The translations under genes and the position numbers were made by a program. Shown here piece by piece: positions 45,087 to 61,277 of a stretch of DNA of 64,000 nt (position 1 is the first letter of the stretch; each line of letters starts with the position of its first letter). The DNA comes from Bacteroidota bacterium (lineage in GTDB: Bacteria > Bacteroidota > Bacteroidia > Bacteroidales > VadinHA17), in NCBI GenBank assembly GCA_043800695.1, contig JAZDMU010000012.1, positions 13,883-77,882 of the forward strand, given 5' to 3'. The notes below the pieces were generated by a model. The model saw nothing but the letters and a program-made list of their open reading frames with translations, did no database searches and was not told where the DNA came from.

Positions 45087-45214
45087 GAATCGGAGAACAA
45101 TACTGAAAACAAATCCCATTCAAAAAGGGAAATAAACACGCAACCCGCAACTTGTTAATATCTCTTCCACTTATCGACCTCTGTTTATTCGATAATTACT
45201 CTATCTTTGAACTG

Positions 45215-45412
45215 TTATGGTGTTGCACTGAATTAAAATCAGTGTGATGAAAAGGGAATGCGGTGTGAATCCGCAACAGTACCCGCTGCTGTGATGCCCG
45301 ATCGTTCTAACGATGATGGTCTTGTGATAACCTGCCACTGTTCCGGGCACCCGGGATGGGAAGGCTTCACAGGGCCGGGACAAGTCAGAAGACCTGCCAG
45401 ACAAACCATATT
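45215..45412 (+). promoter_or_regulatory. Cobalamin (AdoCbl) riboswitch
   Basis: AAAGGGAAtgcGGTGtGAAtCCgcaaCAGtaCCCGCTGCTGT (45250-45292), GCCACTG (45333-45339) and the B12 box AGTCAGAAGACCTGCC (45383-45398). It lies upstream of a TonB-dependent receptor. Confidence 0.88.
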
Positions 45413-45507
45413 CAAGGCTTTCGGGAAGTAAGGCTCAGTGTCACAGTTGATTCAATTCCTGTCCTGCTGAAATCCCTGAATACGGCTGAAAGTTAAGACA
45501 GAGTTGA

Positions 45508-54258: not shown

Positions 54259-54951
54259 TCAGGTATCCAACTTCATCAGATCGATATTCCCATCAGGTCT
54301 TCTCTCGCCTTTCAGCACAAAGCTGAACCTGTTAACCATAGTGCATAGGAAGAAATCAGTGGGCGGAGAGTAGCTCAGGTTGGCAGGATCAAAGAACCTG
54401 CTTCCTGATCCGTATCTGAGTTCAGCGATCTGCTTGTCAAAGCTGATATTTTTACCAGTAAGCCCTGCCCTGATCATTTCAGCACATATCAGGTCCTCCT
54501 CAGCCGGAATGGATGCTCTGTAACCCATTGCCACCAGAGATACCTGTTCAGGATCAAGGGATTTTATATATCTTACCACGGCGCCCCCGTTAACAAGGCT
54601 CCCGGTAAGAAGAACGCCGGCATTCATGGCATTAACCAGGCCGTTTGTTCCGGCAGTGGTTGTTTGTATCACTGTTTTCCCTGTGAGGTCCGCCTTAAGC
54701 ATTTCAGTTGGGCTGTTCCCGTAATCAAAGCCTTCAATTTTACGCTCACCCCTTTCACCTGTCAGTATGGAGGTCCGGTAGCTCTTCTTCAGGTCAAATG
54801 CCTTTTGAACCTCCGAAGTGGCTATCACCCTCACGGCTCCTGAATCGAAAGCATAGCAGGCAACGGAGAATGCCCTGAAGACATCAATGATGACTGTGAC
54901 TCCCTTTGCTCTTTTTGCACCTTCAACAAACTCAAGGATTTCTATATGCAT
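54259..54951 (-). CDS. 2-phosphosulfolactate phosphatase family protein (ComB-like)
   Basis: VTVIIDVFRAFS and TTTAGTNG motifs characteristic of the ComB family. 230 aa. Confidence 0.65.
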   Translation of the reverse strand: MHIEILEFVEGAKRAKGVTVIIDVFRAFSVACYAFDSGAVRVIATSEVQKAFDLKKSYRTSILTGERGERKIEGFDYGNSPTEMLKADLTGKTVIQTTTAGTNGLVNAMNAGVLLTGSLVNGGAVVRYIKSLDPEQVSLVAMGYRASIPAEEDLICAEMIRAGLTGKNISFDKQIAELRYGSGSRFFDPANLSYSPPTDFFLCTMVNRFSFVLKGERRPDGNIDLMKLDT

Positions 54952-55033
54952 ATCCGGAATACCTGATCTGAAAAATAATAATAATTTTCATTAATCGCCC
55001 CGTCAATTTTGTATATTTGAAAAAATACCTGTG

Positions 55034-56377
55034 ATGGCAAATCCTGTATCGTGGGCAATAGAACAGGTTAAAAACCTGAACGATGCTATCTGGCATACAC
55101 CTCTTTCAGAGTTATCACGCAGGAAAACATTCCTTATAAAACAGGCGAGGATACTCTTTATAGCCGGCCGCAGCTCGCTGAAAGACAGAGTGGAACTCAG
55201 GGCTTCAGCCCTTACATTTTACACCATGCTTTCGATCATCCCCGTTATCGCAATAGCGTTTGCAATAGCCAAGGGATTCGGCCTCGATCAGAATCTTGAT
55301 TCAGTCATTACCAATTCAAAGGATTTCCAGTCATACAGCCAGATCCTTACTCCGCTTCTTGACAGAGCAAGGGATACAATCCAGGAGACAAGGGGAGGAT
55401 ATATAGCAGGTGTTGGCATGATAATACTCTTCTGGTCGGTTATATCGCTTCTGGGACAGATTGAAAGTTCATTCAATCATATCTGGCAGATAGCATCCGC
55501 AAGGCCCTGGTACAGAAAATTCACGGATTACCTTACCATAATGCTGTTCGCGCCTGTGCTTCTGATCCTGTCAAGCAGCATTACCGTTTTTATCAGCACT
55601 GCGCTTACGGAATTCATGTTGAAAGCGCCGATCCTGGCTTTTTTTAAGCCGGTTATCAGCCTCCTGATCAAGTTTGCCCCCTTTCTGCTTACCTGGACAA
55701 GCCTGACCCTTTTGTTCATGGTCATGCCGAATGCAAAGGTCAAATTTATGCCGGCGATGATCTCGGGCATAATTGCAGGTTCGCTCCTTAAGATTCTTCA
55801 ATGGCTCTATCTTGACCTTCAGTTTGGCATTACAAAGTTGAGCGCGATCTACGGAGGACTTGCAGCGATTCCCCTGTTCATCATCTTCCTTCAGACAACA
55901 TGGATAATTATTCTGATAGGGGCTGAACTCTCGTTTGCCAACCAGAATATTTCAAGATACGAATTTGAATCCGAGGCGCTTAATGTGAGCCATTTCCATA
56001 AAAGAGCCCTTGTGATCCTGATAATGAATATGATAATCAGGAACTTTGCTGTGGGAGAGAAGCCTGTAGGCGCCGAGAGCATCGGAAAATCCCTCAGGAT
56101 ACCCGTGCGACTCGCGCGTGACATTCTGGCGGACCTTACCAAAGCAAATCTTGTTTCTGTCATATATGAAAAAGACCAGATCGAGAGGCTTTATCAGCCG
56201 GCACTTGATATTAATAAGCTAACAGTGAGTTATGTGCTTTCAAAGCTCGACAAAAAGGGTATTGAACATCAGATCGTGATCAACAACAAAGACTTTGAGA
56301 GGATTGTCGCCATGCTTGAAAAATTTGACAGGATCACTGCCAAATCAGATTCTAATATCCTGATCAGGGATCTTTAA
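55034..56377 (+). CDS. YihY/BrkB family membrane protein
   Basis: N-terminal pattern (ASALTFYTMLSIIPVIAIAFAI), six TM segments and a cytoplasmic C-terminal extension. Confidence 0.7.
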   Translation: MANPVSWAIEQVKNLNDAIWHTPLSELSRRKTFLIKQARILFIAGRSSLKDRVELRASALTFYTMLSIIPVIAIAFAIAKGFGLDQNLDSVITNSKDFQSYSQILTPLLDRARDTIQETRGGYIAGVGMIILFWSVISLLGQIESSFNHIWQIASARPWYRKFTDYLTIMLFAPVLLILSSSITVFISTALTEFMLKAPILAFFKPVISLLIKFAPFLLTWTSLTLLFMVMPNAKVKFMPAMISGIIAGSLLKILQWLYLDLQFGITKLSAIYGGLAAIPLFIIFLQTTWIIILIGAELSFANQNISRYEFESEALNVSHFHKRALVILIMNMIIRNFAVGEKPVGAESIGKSLRIPVRLARDILADLTKANLVSVIYEKDQIERLYQPALDINKLTVSYVLSKLDKKGIEHQIVINNKDFERIVAMLEKFDRITAKSDSNILIRDL

Positions 56378-57095
56378 GAACACCTTCCGCATTTTTGCTT
56401 TTTACCGCTCTCTTTTTCCTGAACTGCTCCACAAAATTTATGAATTCAGAAAATGAATTCCATCTGTTGAAAAGATAATGGGGGAGAGGAAGAATAATAT
56501 GGCGTGTAAGCTTTTGTCTTTTCCAGTAACTGTTTACATTTTCGGAAGGAAAAACCCTGTCTATTTCGCTTGATACCGCATAATCCCAATTGAAACCCGG
56601 TTCCGGCTGCTCCATTATCCTGTTATAGAGCCATCTGAGCTCGTCATGCAGTGATTTGACAGTTCGATGAGGTATCCTGTCAGCATTCAGCCTGAAAGTT
56701 CTCCTGTCGCCAAACATTCGCAGGTAGAATTTCTCAATGTTGGCCTCTGAGATGTTGTTAAGGGTGCCCTCAAATACCTTGAGAGGAATTCCGTACTGGT
56801 CATCTGCCGGCACCGGAGTGCCGTTAACTGCGATTGTAACATCAGGTACAATTCCGGTTTTTAATGATAAATATTCTGCTGCCCATACGCCAAGCGACCA
56901 GCCAATGAGAGTAATCTTCTTGTACACTTTCATCTCCGGCAGGACAAGAGCCTCGTCGGCCGAGTAGTTGTAGAAAAGGATGAAATCGAACTCATCGTTG
57001 CACAGAGGGGTAAAGACATTCTCGTCAGTGCCCCAGCCGCCGAAAAATACAACAAGCTGGTCATTCTTCTCCCGTCGCCTGATATATGTCCTCAT
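56364..57095 (-). CDS. DUF452/BioG-like alpha/beta hydrolase (possible pimeloyl-ACP methyl ester esterase)
   Basis: LVVFFGGWGTDENVF N-terminus and the nucleophile elbow GWSLGVW. Size is typical of BioG. Confidence 0.5.
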   Translation of the reverse strand: MRTYIRRREKNDQLVVFFGGWGTDENVFTPLCNDEFDFILFYNYSADEALVLPEMKVYKKITLIGWSLGVWAAEYLSLKTGIVPDVTIAVNGTPVPADDQYGIPLKVFEGTLNNISEANIEKFYLRMFGDRRTFRLNADRIPHRTVKSLHDELRWLYNRIMEQPEPGFNWDYAVSSEIDRVFPSENVNSYWKRQKLTRHIILPLPHYLFNRWNSFSEFINFVEQFRKKRAVKSKNAEGVLKDP

Positions 57096-57197
57096 GAACC
57101 CTTAAGATGGAATTAACCAATTTACCCTATCTACCGGGGGCAAAGATAATATAAATTTCATTCATTATTCCGGCAGGCTGAAGGGGAGGAGCGTGTT

Positions 57198-57420
57198 AAA
57201 AAGCATAAAAAAATAAGAGGAGAAAGGGTAGTCATGAAAATCAGGGAGCGGGCTTTATTAATGAGATAATTCCCGTGTCTACTGTCTGATAAAAGGACAG
57301 AACCATGGAAAGCTGGCGCTTTTCCTCAGGTTCCAGATGTGAAAGTCAATGTCTGCAATACAATCCTGTTGATTTTCACTCCCTACCCTTGCTCATCTCC
57401 TCTTATACCAATAGCATGAG
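57198..57420 (-). ncRNA. Candidate structured RNA (~220 nt) closed by a 28-bp long-range helix
   Basis: Minus-strand promoter: TTTG (57457-57454), a 19-nt spacer, then TATATTTG (57434-57427). Helix segments: 57396-57406 pairs with 57213-57223 (11 bp), 57383-57390 with 57224-57231 (8 bp), and 57370-57378 with 57235-57243 (9 bp). Apical hairpin at 57307-57325. On the minus strand the helix is followed by T7-ATGC-T5 (57213-57198). Confidence 0.35.
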
Positions 57421-57438
57421 CTTTAACAAATATATATA

Positions 57439-57446
57439 TAAATTTG
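57439..57446 (+). promoter_or_regulatory. Bacteroidota -7 promoter box upstream of the aconitase-family genes
   Basis: TAAATTTG lies 66 nt upstream of the ATG at 57512. Confidence 0.35.
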
Positions 57447-57511
57447 CAAATATCAAAATAATTTAAAAAATATTTTATACCTCTTATTAACTAAATTTGG
57501 ATCATTAAATA

Positions 57512-59323
57512 ATGGAAGATGTCATGACGCTGGTCGAGAAAATACTTGCTGTTCACTCCGGGAAAGAATCAGTTCATCCGGGAGAAATAATTGATGTAGA
57601 AATTGATATCCGTGTTGCCCGTGATTTCGGCGGTGCTAACGTGGTAAAAAACATCAGGGATAACGGTTTGGATGTGAAAGACCCCGGGAAAACCCTCTTT
57701 ACCTTCGATTGCAACCCTACGGGATCAGATCAGAAATATGCAGTAAATCAGCATATCTGCAGACTGTTTGCCCGTGAGAACGGGATTCGAGTTTATGATA
57801 TCGATTCAGGCATCGGAACTCATCTGCTTATAGATCAGGGCTATGTGGTTCCGGGATCAACAGCTGTTTCAACCGACTCGCATGCCAATATACTGGGAGC
57901 TGTCGGCGCATTCGGACAAGGAATGGGCGATATGGACATTGCCGCTTCATGGCATAGCGGAAAGATATGGTTCAAGGTGCCTCCTTCTGTCAAGCTGAGG
58001 CTTAACGGTAGTTTGCCGGCTGACATAACCGCCAAGGATGTCGTACTTAACCTGTTGGGAATATTTGGAGCAAATTCACTTCTTGGCTATTCGGTGGAGA
58101 TCTGCGGCGAGTCAGTCGACAGGATGAGTCTCGATTCGAGGATAACCATATCATCAATGGCAACCGAAATGGGTGCGATAACAATATTATTTCCGGCCTC
58201 AACAGAGATAATTGATTATTGCAGCCGCCGGTCATCATATAAATTCACGCCACTTTATACCGACCCGGATGCACTCTACGAAAAAACATTTGATATAGAT
58301 GTCTCCGGATTCGTTTCCTTGGTGTCACGTCCCGGAGAACCTCATGATATTGTTGCAGCTTCAGCACTTGAAGGGACAAAAATTGATTCTGCCTTTATCG
58401 GAAGCTGCACTAATGGGAGAATGGAGGATATGAGGATTGCTGCGGAGATACTTAAGGGAAGAACTGTCGCACCAGGAGTTGTGCTTAAGATAGTTCCTGC
58501 AACGGATGAGATATGGAAAGAGTGCCTGTCAGAAGGCCTGGTTGATATATTTAAAAGAGCCGGAGCTCTTTTCTCAAATGCAGGTTGCGCCGGATGCGCT
58601 GCCGGACAGGTCGGTCAGAATGGACCGGAGGAAGTTACAGTAAGTACCGGAAACAGAAACTTCCCCGGAAAACAGGGAAAGGGGAGCGTATACCTTGCAT
58701 CGCCTGCCATTGCAGCTGCCTCGGCAGTTGCAGGATATATAACAACTCCTGGCAGAATACCTTTACAACCCGCTGTTTTTAAGACCATGGAAAGAAAATC
58801 GGACGTAACTAAAAAAGAGGCAGGGGAGAGGAAAGCAAAACCTGATTTTATCGAAGGCAGGATATGGCTGATACGGAAAGACAATATTGACACCGATATG
58901 ATCTTTCATAACAGGTACCTGTCAATCACTGAGCTTAAGGAGATGGGGCAATATACATTTGATAACCTGAAGGGATTTGAGGATTTTGCCAAAAAAGCAA
59001 AACCGGGAGATATTGTGTATGCAGGCAGGAATTTCGGAAGCGGAAGCTCCAGACAGCAGGCTGTAGACTGCTTCTTATCGCTTGGCATACAGGGCATCAT
59101 TGCCGGATCATTCGGTGCGATATATGAAAGGAATTCAATTAATGCGGCTTTTCCGGTTATCATATGCAAATCGGCCGAAGAGCTTGAACTTAAAGAAGGA
59201 GACACTGTCATGGTAGACCTCAGAACAGGAATTATCACGAACCTGAATAACAAAAAAACAACTTCGGCTGAGCCTTTCTCTGATGTGCAGTTTGAAATTT
59301 ACCAGAAAGGCGGACTATTATAA
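57512..59323 (+). CDS. Aconitase-superfamily dehydratase: fused LeuC/HacA-like large and LeuD/HacB-like small domains (paralog 1)
   Basis: Large domain: STDSHA, GSCTNGR and AGCAGCAAG (three Fe-S Cys), and STGNRNFPGKQG. A linker follows, then a swivel domain with DNIDTDMI and GRNFGSGSSRQQA. Confidence 0.8.
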   Translation: MEDVMTLVEKILAVHSGKESVHPGEIIDVEIDIRVARDFGGANVVKNIRDNGLDVKDPGKTLFTFDCNPTGSDQKYAVNQHICRLFARENGIRVYDIDSGIGTHLLIDQGYVVPGSTAVSTDSHANILGAVGAFGQGMGDMDIAASWHSGKIWFKVPPSVKLRLNGSLPADITAKDVVLNLLGIFGANSLLGYSVEICGESVDRMSLDSRITISSMATEMGAITILFPASTEIIDYCSRRSSYKFTPLYTDPDALYEKTFDIDVSGFVSLVSRPGEPHDIVAASALEGTKIDSAFIGSCTNGRMEDMRIAAEILKGRTVAPGVVLKIVPATDEIWKECLSEGLVDIFKRAGALFSNAGCAGCAAGQVGQNGPEEVTVSTGNRNFPGKQGKGSVYLASPAIAAASAVAGYITTPGRIPLQPAVFKTMERKSDVTKKEAGERKAKPDFIEGRIWLIRKDNIDTDMIFHNRYLSITELKEMGQYTFDNLKGFEDFAKKAKPGDIVYAGRNFGSGSSRQQAVDCFLSLGIQGIIAGSFGAIYERNSINAAFPVIICKSAEELELKEGDTVMVDLRTGIITNLNNKKTTSAEPFSDVQFEIYQKGGLL

Positions 59324-59331
59324 AACAAAGT

Positions 59332-61107
59332 ATGAAATCAATGACTTTTGCTGAAAAAATATTTGACGCTAAAGCCGGAACCATCGTATTTGCGCGTCCT
59401 GATTTAATACTGACGCACGACAATACGGCCAGCATATATAAGACTTTCAAAAATATGGGAGGCCTCAGAGTGACTGACCCTGATCAGATGCTTATTGTGC
59501 TTGACCATAACGCTCCTCCTGCCGATTCAAAGCTGGCAACACAATACCAGGAAATAAGGGATATCGTCAGGCAGCAGGGAATAAAGAAATTCTATGACTC
59601 AGGCAGCGGAATCTGCCATCAGATAATGTCGTACCATGCGAGGCCGGGAATGCTGATAGTCGGCAGCGACAGCCACACATCAACCGCTGGAGCTTTCAAT
59701 GCTTTTGCTGCAGGAATCGACAGGACTGAATCTGCCGGAATATGGAAAAAGGGAGAGACCTGGTTCAGGGTGCCTGAGTCAATAAAGATAACGATGAAAG
59801 GCAGACTGAAAGCCGGTGTATATGCTAAGGACCTGGCACTGTGGATAATAGGAATGATAGGATCTGATGGTGCTAACTATATGTCAATTGAATACCATGG
59901 TGAGGGTGTAAAAAATCTCAATATCTCTGACAGGATGACAATAGCTAACCTTACCTCTGAAATGGGAGCCAAGAATGCTGTATTTCCGCCCGACGAAGTA
60001 CTTTTTGATTTTCTCGGGAAGACGGTCGGCGGCGTATGGGCCGATAATGGGGCAAAATACTTCAGAGAGATAAAAATTAATCTGTCAGCCATCGTACCTG
60101 TGGTTGCAGCACCTCATAATGTAGACAATGTAAAATCGGTTCCCGAAACTGCCGGCATCCCTGTACACGAGGGACTCATCGGCACCTGCACCAACGGTCG
60201 GATCGAAGACCTTCGCATTTCCGTCGGTATCCTGAAAGGAAAAAAGATCGCCGATGGATTCCAACTGAATATTATCCCTGCATCAAGGGATATATACCTG
60301 CAGGCAATTGAAGAGGGATTGATAACAGCCCTGCTGCGATCAGGAGCAAACATACTGACTCCCTCATGCGGCCCTTGCCTGGGGACAGGACAGGGAATAC
60401 CGGCAAACGGACATACTGTTATCTCAACGGCCAACCGGAATTTCCCGGGCCGCATGGGCAATAAAGAAGCATCAATTTACCTTGCCTCACCGGCAACAGT
60501 CGCCGCATCTGCACTTAAGGGCGTAATAACCGACCCGAGGAAGAAACCCGGGACTGAAAAATTTCCTTTCAATCCTGTGCAGAGCCGTACATCTGAGATA
60601 AAGGGAGGGGAGATGCGGAAGCAGCGAAATGTCTGGAATTATTCTGATGTTGATAACTTCAACACCGACCAGATGTTTGCAGGCAAGCATACATATAATA
60701 TATTGAGTACAGACCCGGCGGCAATACTTCCCCTGCTCTTTGCAGATTTTGATCCCTCATTTGCAAAAAATGTCGCAAAAGGGGATATAATATTGGCGGG
60801 CGATAACTTTGGCTGCGGCAGCTCACGTGAGCATCCTTCTGTGGGATTGGCATATGCGGGCGTGAAAACCGTGATTGTAAAATCAGTGAACCGCATATTC
60901 TACAGGTCCTCAATTAACCAGGGGCTTGCACTCATCGTTCACAGAGAGGCTGTGGAAGCCTACAGGCCGGGTGACAGGGTAGATATTGATTTTGCCAGGG
61001 GGGAGATATCCGTTGGCTCTGAAAAACTAAGTTTTGAACCTCTTCCTCAGGAGCTGAAGCAGATCATCGACAAGAAGGGGCTTGTTAATTACATGAAATC
61101 ACTTTAA
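59332..61107 (+). CDS. Aconitase-superfamily dehydratase: fused LeuC/HacA-like large and LeuD/HacB-like small domains (paralog 2)
   Basis: GSDSHT, GTCTNGR, PSCGPCLGTGQG and STANRNFPGRMG, followed by a small domain with FNTDQMF and GDNFGCGSSREHP. Confidence 0.8.
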   Translation: MKSMTFAEKIFDAKAGTIVFARPDLILTHDNTASIYKTFKNMGGLRVTDPDQMLIVLDHNAPPADSKLATQYQEIRDIVRQQGIKKFYDSGSGICHQIMSYHARPGMLIVGSDSHTSTAGAFNAFAAGIDRTESAGIWKKGETWFRVPESIKITMKGRLKAGVYAKDLALWIIGMIGSDGANYMSIEYHGEGVKNLNISDRMTIANLTSEMGAKNAVFPPDEVLFDFLGKTVGGVWADNGAKYFREIKINLSAIVPVVAAPHNVDNVKSVPETAGIPVHEGLIGTCTNGRIEDLRISVGILKGKKIADGFQLNIIPASRDIYLQAIEEGLITALLRSGANILTPSCGPCLGTGQGIPANGHTVISTANRNFPGRMGNKEASIYLASPATVAASALKGVITDPRKKPGTEKFPFNPVQSRTSEIKGGEMRKQRNVWNYSDVDNFNTDQMFAGKHTYNILSTDPAAILPLLFADFDPSFAKNVAKGDIILAGDNFGCGSSREHPSVGLAYAGVKTVIVKSVNRIFYRSSINQGLALIVHREAVEAYRPGDRVDIDFARGEISVGSEKLSFEPLPQELKQIIDKKGLVNYMKSL

Positions 61108-61203: not shown

Positions 61204-61277
61204 GGTTCCGTAGCTCAGTTGGATAGAGCAACAGCCTTCTAAGCTGTGGGTCGGGCGTTCGAGTCGCCCCGGAATCA
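61204..61277 (+). tRNA. tRNA-Arg (anticodon TCT)
   Basis: Hand-folded cloverleaf: acceptor GGTTCCG/CGGAATC, D arm GCTC-AGTTGGATA-GAGC, anticodon arm ACAGC-CTTCTAA-GCTGT, variable loop GGGTC, T arm GGGCG-TTCGAGT-CGCCC, discriminator A. 74 nt; no encoded CCA. Confidence 0.95.

Follow-up and report, generated by a model that had tools for sequence, protein, structure and literature searches.

Introduction

Large bacterial RNAs that combine an intricate fold with strong conservation are rare, and most have proved to be riboswitches, ribozymes or the cores of ribonucleoproteins. Here we describe a predicted structured RNA of ~215 nt, encoded directly upstream of the biotin-pathway gene bioG in a Bacteroidales bacterium of the VadinHA17 lineage (GenBank assembly GCA_043800695.1). 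The DNA analysed is a 64,000-nt stretch of contig JAZDMU010000012.1 (positions 13,883 to 77,882), hereafter the window, and all coordinates refer to it. Several described systems come close. The nadA motif of Acidobacteria (the NAD+-I riboswitch) was seen before one gene family only, in a single phylum, and was later recognized as a riboswitch. Biotin is explicitly listed as a cofactor without a known riboswitch (PMC9971707). Intergenic small RNAs (sRNAs), GibS and others, have been mapped in Bacteroides thetaiotaomicron (PMC7366714). The 6S RNA of Bacteroidales is the Bacteroidales-1 family (RF01693), which has been validated in B. thetaiotaomicron.

The RNA described here shares with the nadA motif a conserved multi-helix fold with covarying stems and invariant junctions, as well as a location only upstream of, and co-oriented with, one cofactor-biosynthesis gene, in our case with a U-tract after the RNA. 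It departs from nadA-type candidates in that its terminator stem is itself the candidate aptamer-closing helix and that bioG usually has a second promoter downstream of the RNA, and it shows no sequence or model similarity to any riboswitch in Rfam. As in intrinsic terminators and sRNAs derived from 5' untranslated regions (5'-UTRs), a G+C-containing helix is followed by 5-9 U and conservation stops there, but the helix closes a structured domain of ~190 nt instead of a loop of 3-8 nt. Being a promoter-driven, terminator-ended intergenic gene, it also resembles the Bacteroides sRNAs, yet it is much larger and more intricately folded, has ~45% of its positions invariant across a family-level clade, and showed no seed-target pairing in the bioG start region examined. 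Rfam 15 returned no match on the element (region 56500-58100 at E<=10; the 64-kb window at gathering score; 15 homologous loci at E<=5), so that it is uncatalogued, and a literature search found neither a bioG-associated RNA nor a biotin riboswitch. We regard it as a new family, absent from Rfam, of a generally known kind of RNA: it most resembles an orphan riboswitch candidate tied to one cofactor gene or, alternatively, a stable RNA of the 6S/ygfA type, and the criteria examined do not place it in either class. Our preferred reading, to which we give a probability of roughly 0.4, is a leader-type conditional terminator (a riboswitch-like attenuator) of bioG that would also yield a stable sRNA.

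Results

A conserved structured RNA gene upstream of bioG

The element lies in a 416-nt intergenic region (57096-57511), between the BioG-family gene on the minus strand and a fused aconitase-family gene on the plus strand. The sequence almost certainly encodes a real structured RNA gene, with the following parts.

57454-57457, minus strand: -33 box TTTG of the RNA gene (sequence and conservation among homologues)
57427-57434, minus strand: -7 box TATATTTG (TAnnTTTG) of the RNA gene (sequence and conservation among homologues)
57207-57423, minus strand: predicted ~215-nt structured RNA (match to covariance model R1, fold energy, and conservation bounded by promoter and U-tract)
57207-57213, minus strand: U7 tract directly after the closing helix P1, a terminator-like 3' end (sequence; a second run, U5, at 57198-57202)
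56364-57095, minus strand: bioG, pimeloyl-ACP methyl esterase family (Pfam PF04301, E = 2.5e-36)

A sequence-only reading of the window had drawn attention to this region for its long-range inverted repeat, central hairpin, promoter spacing and T-rich tail, and all four are found in the sequence as described. The arm ATAAGAGGAGA/AAGGGTAG/TGAAAATCA (57213-57243) is complementary to TGATTTTCA/CTACCCTT/TCTCCTCTTAT (57370-57406); these arms of ~30 nt form 28 bp, broken by a 3x4 internal loop and a 5-nt bulge. The hairpin reads GGAAAGC-tggc-GCTTTTCC, with GAACC/GGTTC on either side (57299-57334). On the minus strand, TTTG (57457-57454), a spacer of 19 nt and TATATTTG (57434-57427) follow one another in promoter order, and the closing helix is followed by T7-ATGC-T5 (57213-57198).

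Homologues were collected in three scans, and the loci found are numbered with an L. A scan with the BioG protein, taking one genome per species, gave 80 loci, all in metagenome-assembled genomes of uncultured Bacteroidales; a metagenome scan with the RNA-core pattern CATTGACTTTCAC-N10-40-GCGCCAGC, which is blind to bioG, gave at least 120 stretches; and the same pattern found two further stretches in a viral collection. Together, the RNA-bearing loci among those listed amount to ~190, all from uncultured Bacteroidales and each with one copy. An exact-protein look-up with the BioG of the window returned no match.

Among the BioG-sampled loci, blastn with the intergenic region recovered a conserved block of ~270 nt, 79-94% identical, in 78 of 80, so that bioG is preceded there by the RNA or by its 3' portion; most of the BioG proteins are only 73-80% identical to that of the window. 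The exceptions are L018, which comes without upstream DNA, and L036, which has only 728 nt of upstream contig and no covariance-model match. In the pattern scans (120 listed metagenome stretches plus two viral), the RNA is present in 110 of 122; the other 12 (11/120 metagenome loci and the viral L201) have no covariance-model match and were rejected as chance matches, their number being about that expected. Model R1 finds exactly one copy in each locus, at 160-236 bits; its match in the window, at 57211-57405 on the minus strand (235.9 bits), is the sole copy in the 64 kb.

The RNA is more conserved than the gene beside it. Identity of the 195-nt core to the window has a median of 91.2%, against 72.6% for the bioG coding DNA, and the core exceeds bioG in conservation in every locus compared (149/149). 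Conservation is also sharply bounded: upstream only the two promoter boxes are kept, downstream the alignment ends inside the U-run, and the spacer beyond the U-tract can be aligned in just 3 of 187 loci. About 45% of the RNA positions (~90 nt) are invariant, and these lie in loops and junctions. They include the 19-nt stretch CAGACATTGACTTTCACAT as well as GCGCCAGCT, whose invariance was seen in the BioG-sampled set and is therefore not an artefact of the later pattern search.

Three loci deserve separate mention. The 728 nt of contig upstream of bioG in L036 (L036:1-728) contain no copy of the RNA and no gene that convinces; the contig may begin too late to include the RNA, or this lineage may carry an unusually long insertion. 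L179 (147-326) is without 15 nt of the otherwise invariant L2 loop (GTGAAAA---TGCAGACA) and still scores 175 bits, which may reflect a natural deletion variant or an assembly error. L202 (IMGVR_UViG_3300019216_000347, 1073 nt), from the viral collection, holds a partial RNA, 95% identical over 111 nt, and is probably a fragment of bacterial DNA that was misclassified, not a copy carried by a phage.

Open reading frames (ORFs) do exist here, among them a 53-aa plus-strand ORF (57305-57466) and a 21-aa sense ORF, and the conserved segment could in principle be a small protein gene. A search for a conserved ORF on both strands of the homologues found none. The longest ORF on either strand ranges from fewer than 10 to more than 60 aa between homologues, ~40% of which have another triplet where the 53-aa ORF starts; indels of 1, 4, 8, 10 and 13 nt inside the element are not multiples of three, and no Pfam match was obtained. 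A coding function is the least probable of the readings we considered.

Fold, covariation and sense strand

The predicted transcript (57207-57423, minus strand) folds at -68.9 kcal/mol, with z = -4.10 and none of 200 shuffles equally stable. For the element in isolation, the minus strand gives -68 kcal/mol (z = -4.08) and the plus strand -72.5 kcal/mol (z = -5.54). Since both strands fold better than their shuffles, thermodynamics shows that there is structure and does not pick the strand.

Comparison of homologues supplies the stronger evidence for the fold. In a MAFFT alignment of 40 diverse members scored against a hand-drawn structure, 88% of alignment cells are paired, compared with 39-53% when the partners are slid, and 22 pairs have changed on both sides, compared with 12.0 +/- 2.1 in column shuffles (0/500 reaching that number). 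In a model-based alignment of 86 sequences, 92.2% of cells are paired (36-52% when slid) and 25 of 44 pairs are compensatory, where 8.8 +/- 1.7 are expected. The latter alignment leans towards its model, so the MAFFT result serves as an independent control. In the most divergent members, whose BioG is 57-67% identical, whole helix strands are replaced and complementarity is kept: P1b becomes AGAGCAGG/CCTGCTCT, GGGATAA/TTATCCC or TGGTTGTG/CACAACCA, and P1a becomes GAGGTTA/TAACCTC. P2, P4 and the junctions are invariant in these homologues and so lie outside the reach of a covariation test. The element is thus predicted to be a minus-strand RNA with a four-way junction (P1-P4) supported by covariation, and the earlier proposal of a structured RNA is borne out by fold stability, conservation and helix covariation alike.

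That proposal had also placed the RNA on the minus strand, and three observations agree. Among helix pairs, G·U or U·G cells number 144 and A·C or C·A cells 52, an excess that identifies the minus strand as the RNA strand, and the conserved promoter and the U-tract are both oriented for it. Taking the plus strand as the functional one, either as an RNA or as a leader of the divergent aconitase-family gene at 57512, would accord with its slightly better fold in isolation. The plus-strand gene, however, has its promoter-like TAAATTTG boxes on the downstream side of the element, and the RNA persists in loci that have no aconitase-like genes, so that a plus-strand function is extremely improbable.

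Terminal inverted repeats of about 28 bp would equally suit a feature acting as DNA, be it a miniature inverted-repeat transposable element (MITE), another mobile inverted repeat or a palindrome bound by a protein within the divergent promoter region. Against this, the arms covary in a way that keeps the pairs and tolerates G·U, which is the signature of an RNA, and the interior is more conserved than the arms. A MITE in particular, which the sequence-only reading had held out as the alternative, is excluded by the single copy in the window and in each locus, the fixed syntenic site and the lack of a target-site duplication flanking the arms. We regard a DNA-level feature as scarcely credible.

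Promoter and 3' end

The two boxes upstream of the RNA conform to a Bacteroidota sigma-A promoter, both in sequence (TTTG and TATATTTG) and in their spacing, which is ~19-20 nt in such promoters and 19 nt in the window. TTTG-N17-21-TAnnTTTG precedes the RNA in 150 of 156 unique homologues, with a spacer of 19 nt in 91 and 20 nt in 52, and the sequence of this spacer is not conserved. Conservation of the RNA itself begins a few nucleotides downstream of the -7 box, at AAGCTCATGC, and from the position of the boxes transcription would start at about 57422. The promoter pointing into the element, as first described from the window, is therefore a property of nearly the whole family.

The same is true of the proposed 3' end. 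A run of at least five U stands right after CCYCUU, the end of the P1 3' strand, in 136 of 156 homologues, and conservation stops there. With 9 bp in P1a and 8 bp in P1b followed by U7, the predicted arrangement of a stable helix and a U-run is that of an intrinsic terminator. A hairpin scanner made no terminator call at P1 and the U-tract, because the 'loop' inside P1 is a domain of ~190 nt, which standard terminator scanners miss.

Architecture of the RNA

From the 5' to the 3' end, the RNA is predicted to be built as follows (P, paired; J, junction; L, loop).

57413-57422, minus strand: P0, small 5' hairpin AGC-UCAU-GCU (fold of the predicted transcript)
57397-57405, minus strand: P1a 5' strand UAAGAGGAG, pairing with 57214-57222 (8/9 pairs compensatory, 95.5% of cells paired)
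57383-57390, minus strand: P1b 5' strand AAGGGUAG, pairing with 57224-57231 (7/8 pairs compensatory)
57369-57379, minus strand: segment 1, GUGAAAAUCAA; GUGA:UCAY pairs over long range (P1c), the rest with segment 2 or segment 3
57350-57368, minus strand: L2, 19-nt loop CAGGAUUGUAUUGCAGACA inside P2 (invariant or nearly so)
57339-57349, minus strand: segment 2, UUGACUUUCAC, 3' strand of the local P2 hairpin (invariant in 73 BioG-sampled sequences)
57299-57334, minus strand: P3 hairpin, GGAACC/GGUUCY and GG-AAAGC/GCUUU-CC around invariant GCGCCAGC (covariation)
57276-57298, minus strand: J3/4, 23-nt nearly invariant junction strand (G/A)UCCUUUUAUCAGACAGUAGACA (alignment)
57249-57275, minus strand: P4 hairpin CGGG...CCCG with a loop of variable length (97.4% of cells paired)
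57234-57243, minus strand: segment 3, UGAUUUUCAU, 3' partner of segment 1 in the closed form (sequence and pairing count)
57224-57231, minus strand: P1b 3' strand CUACCCUU (sequence and covariation)
57214-57222, minus strand: P1a 3' strand CUCCUCUUA, with the U-tract immediately after it

A hairpin is found at the P0 site in 123 of 156 homologues and is absent in four members; in divergent homologues it takes other forms (GGGC/GCCC, ATAGCA/TGCTAT, TTAGC/GCTAA, CATGTA/TACATG). Compensatory changes also occur in P3 (4/6 pairs of P3a and 4/7 of P3b), and the length of the P4 loop differs by 1-13 nt between homologues. A further pairing, of the 5' GCUCAU with AUGAGC in the internal loop of P1, was considered and rejected: complementarity exists in the main clade, but where the loop sequence differs, the 5' partner has not changed with it.

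The 28-bp closing helix first described for the window is upheld in its outer parts, P1a and P1b, which covary. Pairing of its innermost third (TGAAAATCA/TGATTTTCA, segments 1 and 3) is possible in 89.6% of cells and shows no covariation above shuffles, and in divergent members this third shrinks to GUG/CAC, with segment 3 reduced to (U)CAC. P1c, the long-range pairing of GUGA with UCAY, is possible in 97.7% of cells. Local pairing of segment 1 with segment 2 is possible in 96-99% of cells (99.1% for the full pairing), and RNAalifold selects this hairpin. Segment 1 thus has two mutually exclusive conserved partners.

Two unpaired invariant regions (57350-57368 and 57276-57298) carry a similar motif, CAGACAUUGAC in L2/P2 and CAGACAGUAGAC in J3/4, and AGGAU in L2 is complementary to AUCCU in J3/4. 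The similarity and the complementarity could mark a protein-binding repeat or a tertiary contact.

The sequence-only reading had likened the element to 6S RNA, which binds the RNA polymerase holoenzyme by mimicking an open promoter. The likeness is one of size (~200 nt), of a long, irregular, end-to-end closing helix, conserved unpaired central sequences and an apical hairpin, and of a strong promoter of its own, which suggests abundance; it holds for RF01693 and the flavobacterial 6S-Flavo (RF01685) too. The E. coli 6S RNA gene, ssrS, lies upstream of ygfA and is co-transcribed with it, and in our case too the neighbour immediately downstream is a metabolic gene, predicted to be transcribed in part together with the RNA. 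The comparison nevertheless finds no support here. Neither RF00013 nor RF01685 nor RF01693 matches (window at E<=10; 15 homologues at E<=5), and the family to which Bacteroidales 6S RNA belongs is Bacteroidales-1. The conserved fold has a four-way junction at its core and two additional hairpins, where 6S RNA is one rod of closing stem, single central bubble and apical stem, and the 3' end of our RNA is a U-tract rather than a processed end. A 6S-type function is accordingly quite improbable.

Association with bioG

In every RNA-bearing locus with enough flanking sequence, except L124, bioG lies downstream of the RNA in the same orientation. This includes the loci found by pattern, blind to bioG, where bioG still follows even when its product is only 57-60% identical to that of the window. 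The exception, L124 (1363-2413), holds an RNA copy of 224.5 bits with a gene for an AraC-type regulator upstream and ~855 nt of ORF-poor DNA downstream; no BioG match occurs in those ~855 nt before the contig ends, and L124 alone failed to show bioG behind the RNA. On its far side, bioG is followed by a convergent BrkB/YihY gene in every locus compared (149/149).

Between the end of P1 and the bioG start codon lie 19-546 nt (median 132). In the window this gap contains a possible promoter element of bioG:

57141-57148, minus strand: -7-type box TATCTTTG, putative bioG promoter (box end 45 nt upstream of the bioG ATG)

Eight loci, with seven unique spacers, have bioG starting just 19-50 nt after P1 (L096/L077, L135, L147, L180, L169, L006 and L122). 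Measured from the U-tract, the bioG ATG is 19-28 nt away in ~5% of loci. The gap is 19-39 nt in all of these except L122, and bioG is an intact ORF in them. Inspected by eye, the junction reads ...CCTCCTCTTTTTTTTTGAATATACCGGA|ATGAAAACC in L096 and ...CCTCTTATTTTTTAGAGGTGGTCAATA|ATGAAAACC in L147. The short-spacer state is spread over several species-level lineages and points to at least two or three independent events. Since a gap of 19-39 nt leaves no room for a promoter, bioG would be transcribed there only by read-through from the RNA promoter; in all, the RNA would of necessity belong to the bioG transcript in seven short-spacer lineages. Obligatory read-through implies that read-through is physiologically sufficient, and that the RNA is a 5' leader in these genomes at least.

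Antisense regulation of the bioG start region was considered and rejected: duplex energies between the RNA and that region are no better than those of shuffles (median z 0.07), and there is no consistent complementarity.

Genomic neighbourhood

The genes around the RNA and bioG in the window are listed below.

55031-56377, plus strand: BrkB/YihY-family gene, convergent to bioG and overlapping its 3' end by 14 nt (56364-56377)
57512-59323, plus strand: first fused aconitase-family gene (LeuC-like large and LeuD-like small subunit), homoaconitase/isopropylmalate-dehydratase family
59332-61107, plus strand: second, tandem fused aconitase-family gene with the same LeuC-LeuD fusion, ~32% identical to the first
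61204-61277, plus strand: tRNA gene just after the second aconitase-like gene (RF00005, 67 bits), the far edge of a presence/absence polymorphism

The aconitase-like pair is present in most relatives and absent in L085, L188, L117, L142 and L168, where the tRNA gene adjoins the RNA; the variable upstream neighbour of the RNA is explained by the presence or absence of these two genes between it and the tRNA gene. Homoaconitase-family genes could in principle supply intermediates of 2-oxoacid elongation towards pimelate. That the pair makes the cluster biotin-related is speculation on our part. Further away, a cobalamin riboswitch (RF00174, 96.2 bits, E = 1e-22) lies at 45200-45415 on the plus strand, upstream of a run of plus-strand ORFs from 45508. 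A gene of the 2-phosphosulfolactate phosphatase (ComB) family, at 54259-54951 on the minus strand, is two genes from bioG, in a bacterium for which coenzyme M synthesis would not be expected.

Discussion

We have described an RNA family whose members almost always stand before bioG. The sequence-only reading had offered a novel sRNA or a leader of the BioG-like gene as alternatives to 6S RNA; both are retained here, and the data do not fully separate them. As a conditional terminator, the RNA would work as follows. P1 and the U-tract would form an intrinsic terminator directly before bioG. Transcripts stopping at the U-tract would build up as a stable RNA whose ends P1 protects, and those reading through would become bioG mRNA, adding in most genomes to the output of bioG's own promoter and providing the sole route in one sub-clade. 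A bound metabolite or factor, perhaps linked to the biotin or pimelate pathway, would set the state of the conserved junction, and this state would decide whether the P1 5' strand is free to close with its 3' strand before the polymerase leaves the U-tract.

Internal look-alikes of the P1 partner strand make such a switch plausible on modelling grounds. The P1a 5' strand is complementary to the invariant J3/4, which is transcribed ~75 nt earlier than the true 3' strand, and the 3' strand CUGAUUUUCACAAC-CACCCUUC-CUCCUCUUAUU has a look-alike in the internal strand UUGACUUUCACAUC-[P3]-AUCCUUUUAUC. In transcripts cut short of the 3' strand, UAAGAGGA and the invariant UCCUUUUA pair with each other in the minimum-energy fold of 70 of 86 sequences. 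Beside these stand the short-spacer lineages, in which the RNA is the probable leader of bioG.

Several observations weigh against a conditional terminator. The competing antiterminator fold (P1a 5' strand with J3/4), evaluated in the 130-nt 5' domain, has z = -1.31 and is not significant against shuffles; the nucleotides involved are all invariant, so that covariation cannot test it and the antiterminator stays hypothetical. A terminator stem that encloses ~190 nt is unconventional. TAnnTTTG occurs 15-80 nt before the bioG start codon in 123 of 147 unique spacers of at least 60 nt (84%; 9.3 in shuffles), and with a -7 box of its own much of the bioG transcription in most genomes would bypass the RNA. 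Synteny across the clade extends to the whole block brkB-bioG-RNA-(two aconitase-like genes)-tRNA, so the constant adjacency of RNA and bioG could be inherited rather than functional. Lastly, all homologues belong to one uncultured family-level clade, and two protein searches, with the BioG of the window and with the most divergent BioG (L172), returned the same clade only and no more distant bioG loci.

Much of this would be expected of an autonomous, trans-acting stable sRNA, either a protein-binding scaffold or sponge or a base-pairing regulator, for which adjacency to bioG would be inherited synteny and read-through would be incidental, as it is for 6S RNA and ygfA in E. coli. We consider such an sRNA possible, and nearly as likely as the leader-type terminator. 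It would account for the near-consensus promoter and U-tract 3' end in nearly all members, for the separate bioG promoter box, for the synteny of the entire neighbourhood and for the lack of a significant antiterminator fold. The long helix joining the 5' and 3' ends and the 5' hairpin are typical of stable RNAs, and protein binding would fit the ~90 invariant nucleotides, which include two similar CAGACA(N)UnGAC motifs in regions left unpaired. On the other hand, a trans-acting sRNA leaves unexplained why several species-level lineages have an intact bioG with only the RNA's promoter, and why the RNA is clearly apart from bioG in none of ~166 informative loci. Nor does any gene for a partner protein show linkage to the RNA, and the bioG start region, the one target compared, shows no consistent complementarity to it.

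A narrower form of the leader-type terminator is a metabolite-sensing riboswitch of the biotin or pimelate pathway, in which a four-way-junction aptamer of ~190 nt has the terminator that gates bioG as its closing helix. The covarying helices (25/44 pairs), the 92% of cells paired and the invariant loops and junctions are what an aptamer would show; we nevertheless think this specific form unlikely. If it were true, it would be the first natural RNA sensor found for biotin metabolism.

To our knowledge, Bacteroidales are reported to be without homologues of Hfq, ProQ and CsrA, and theirs is a group with poorly mapped RNA biology. The RNA described here, now defined in sequence, fold and covariance model, is abundant in metagenomes of wetlands, lake sediments and digesters (at least 120 stretches matched the pattern) and more conserved than its protein-coding neighbour. 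Should it act in trans, it would represent a new class of stable RNA for Bacteroidales. Its position before a biotin-pathway gene makes the gap in our knowledge, that no RNA sensor is known for biotin, directly testable.

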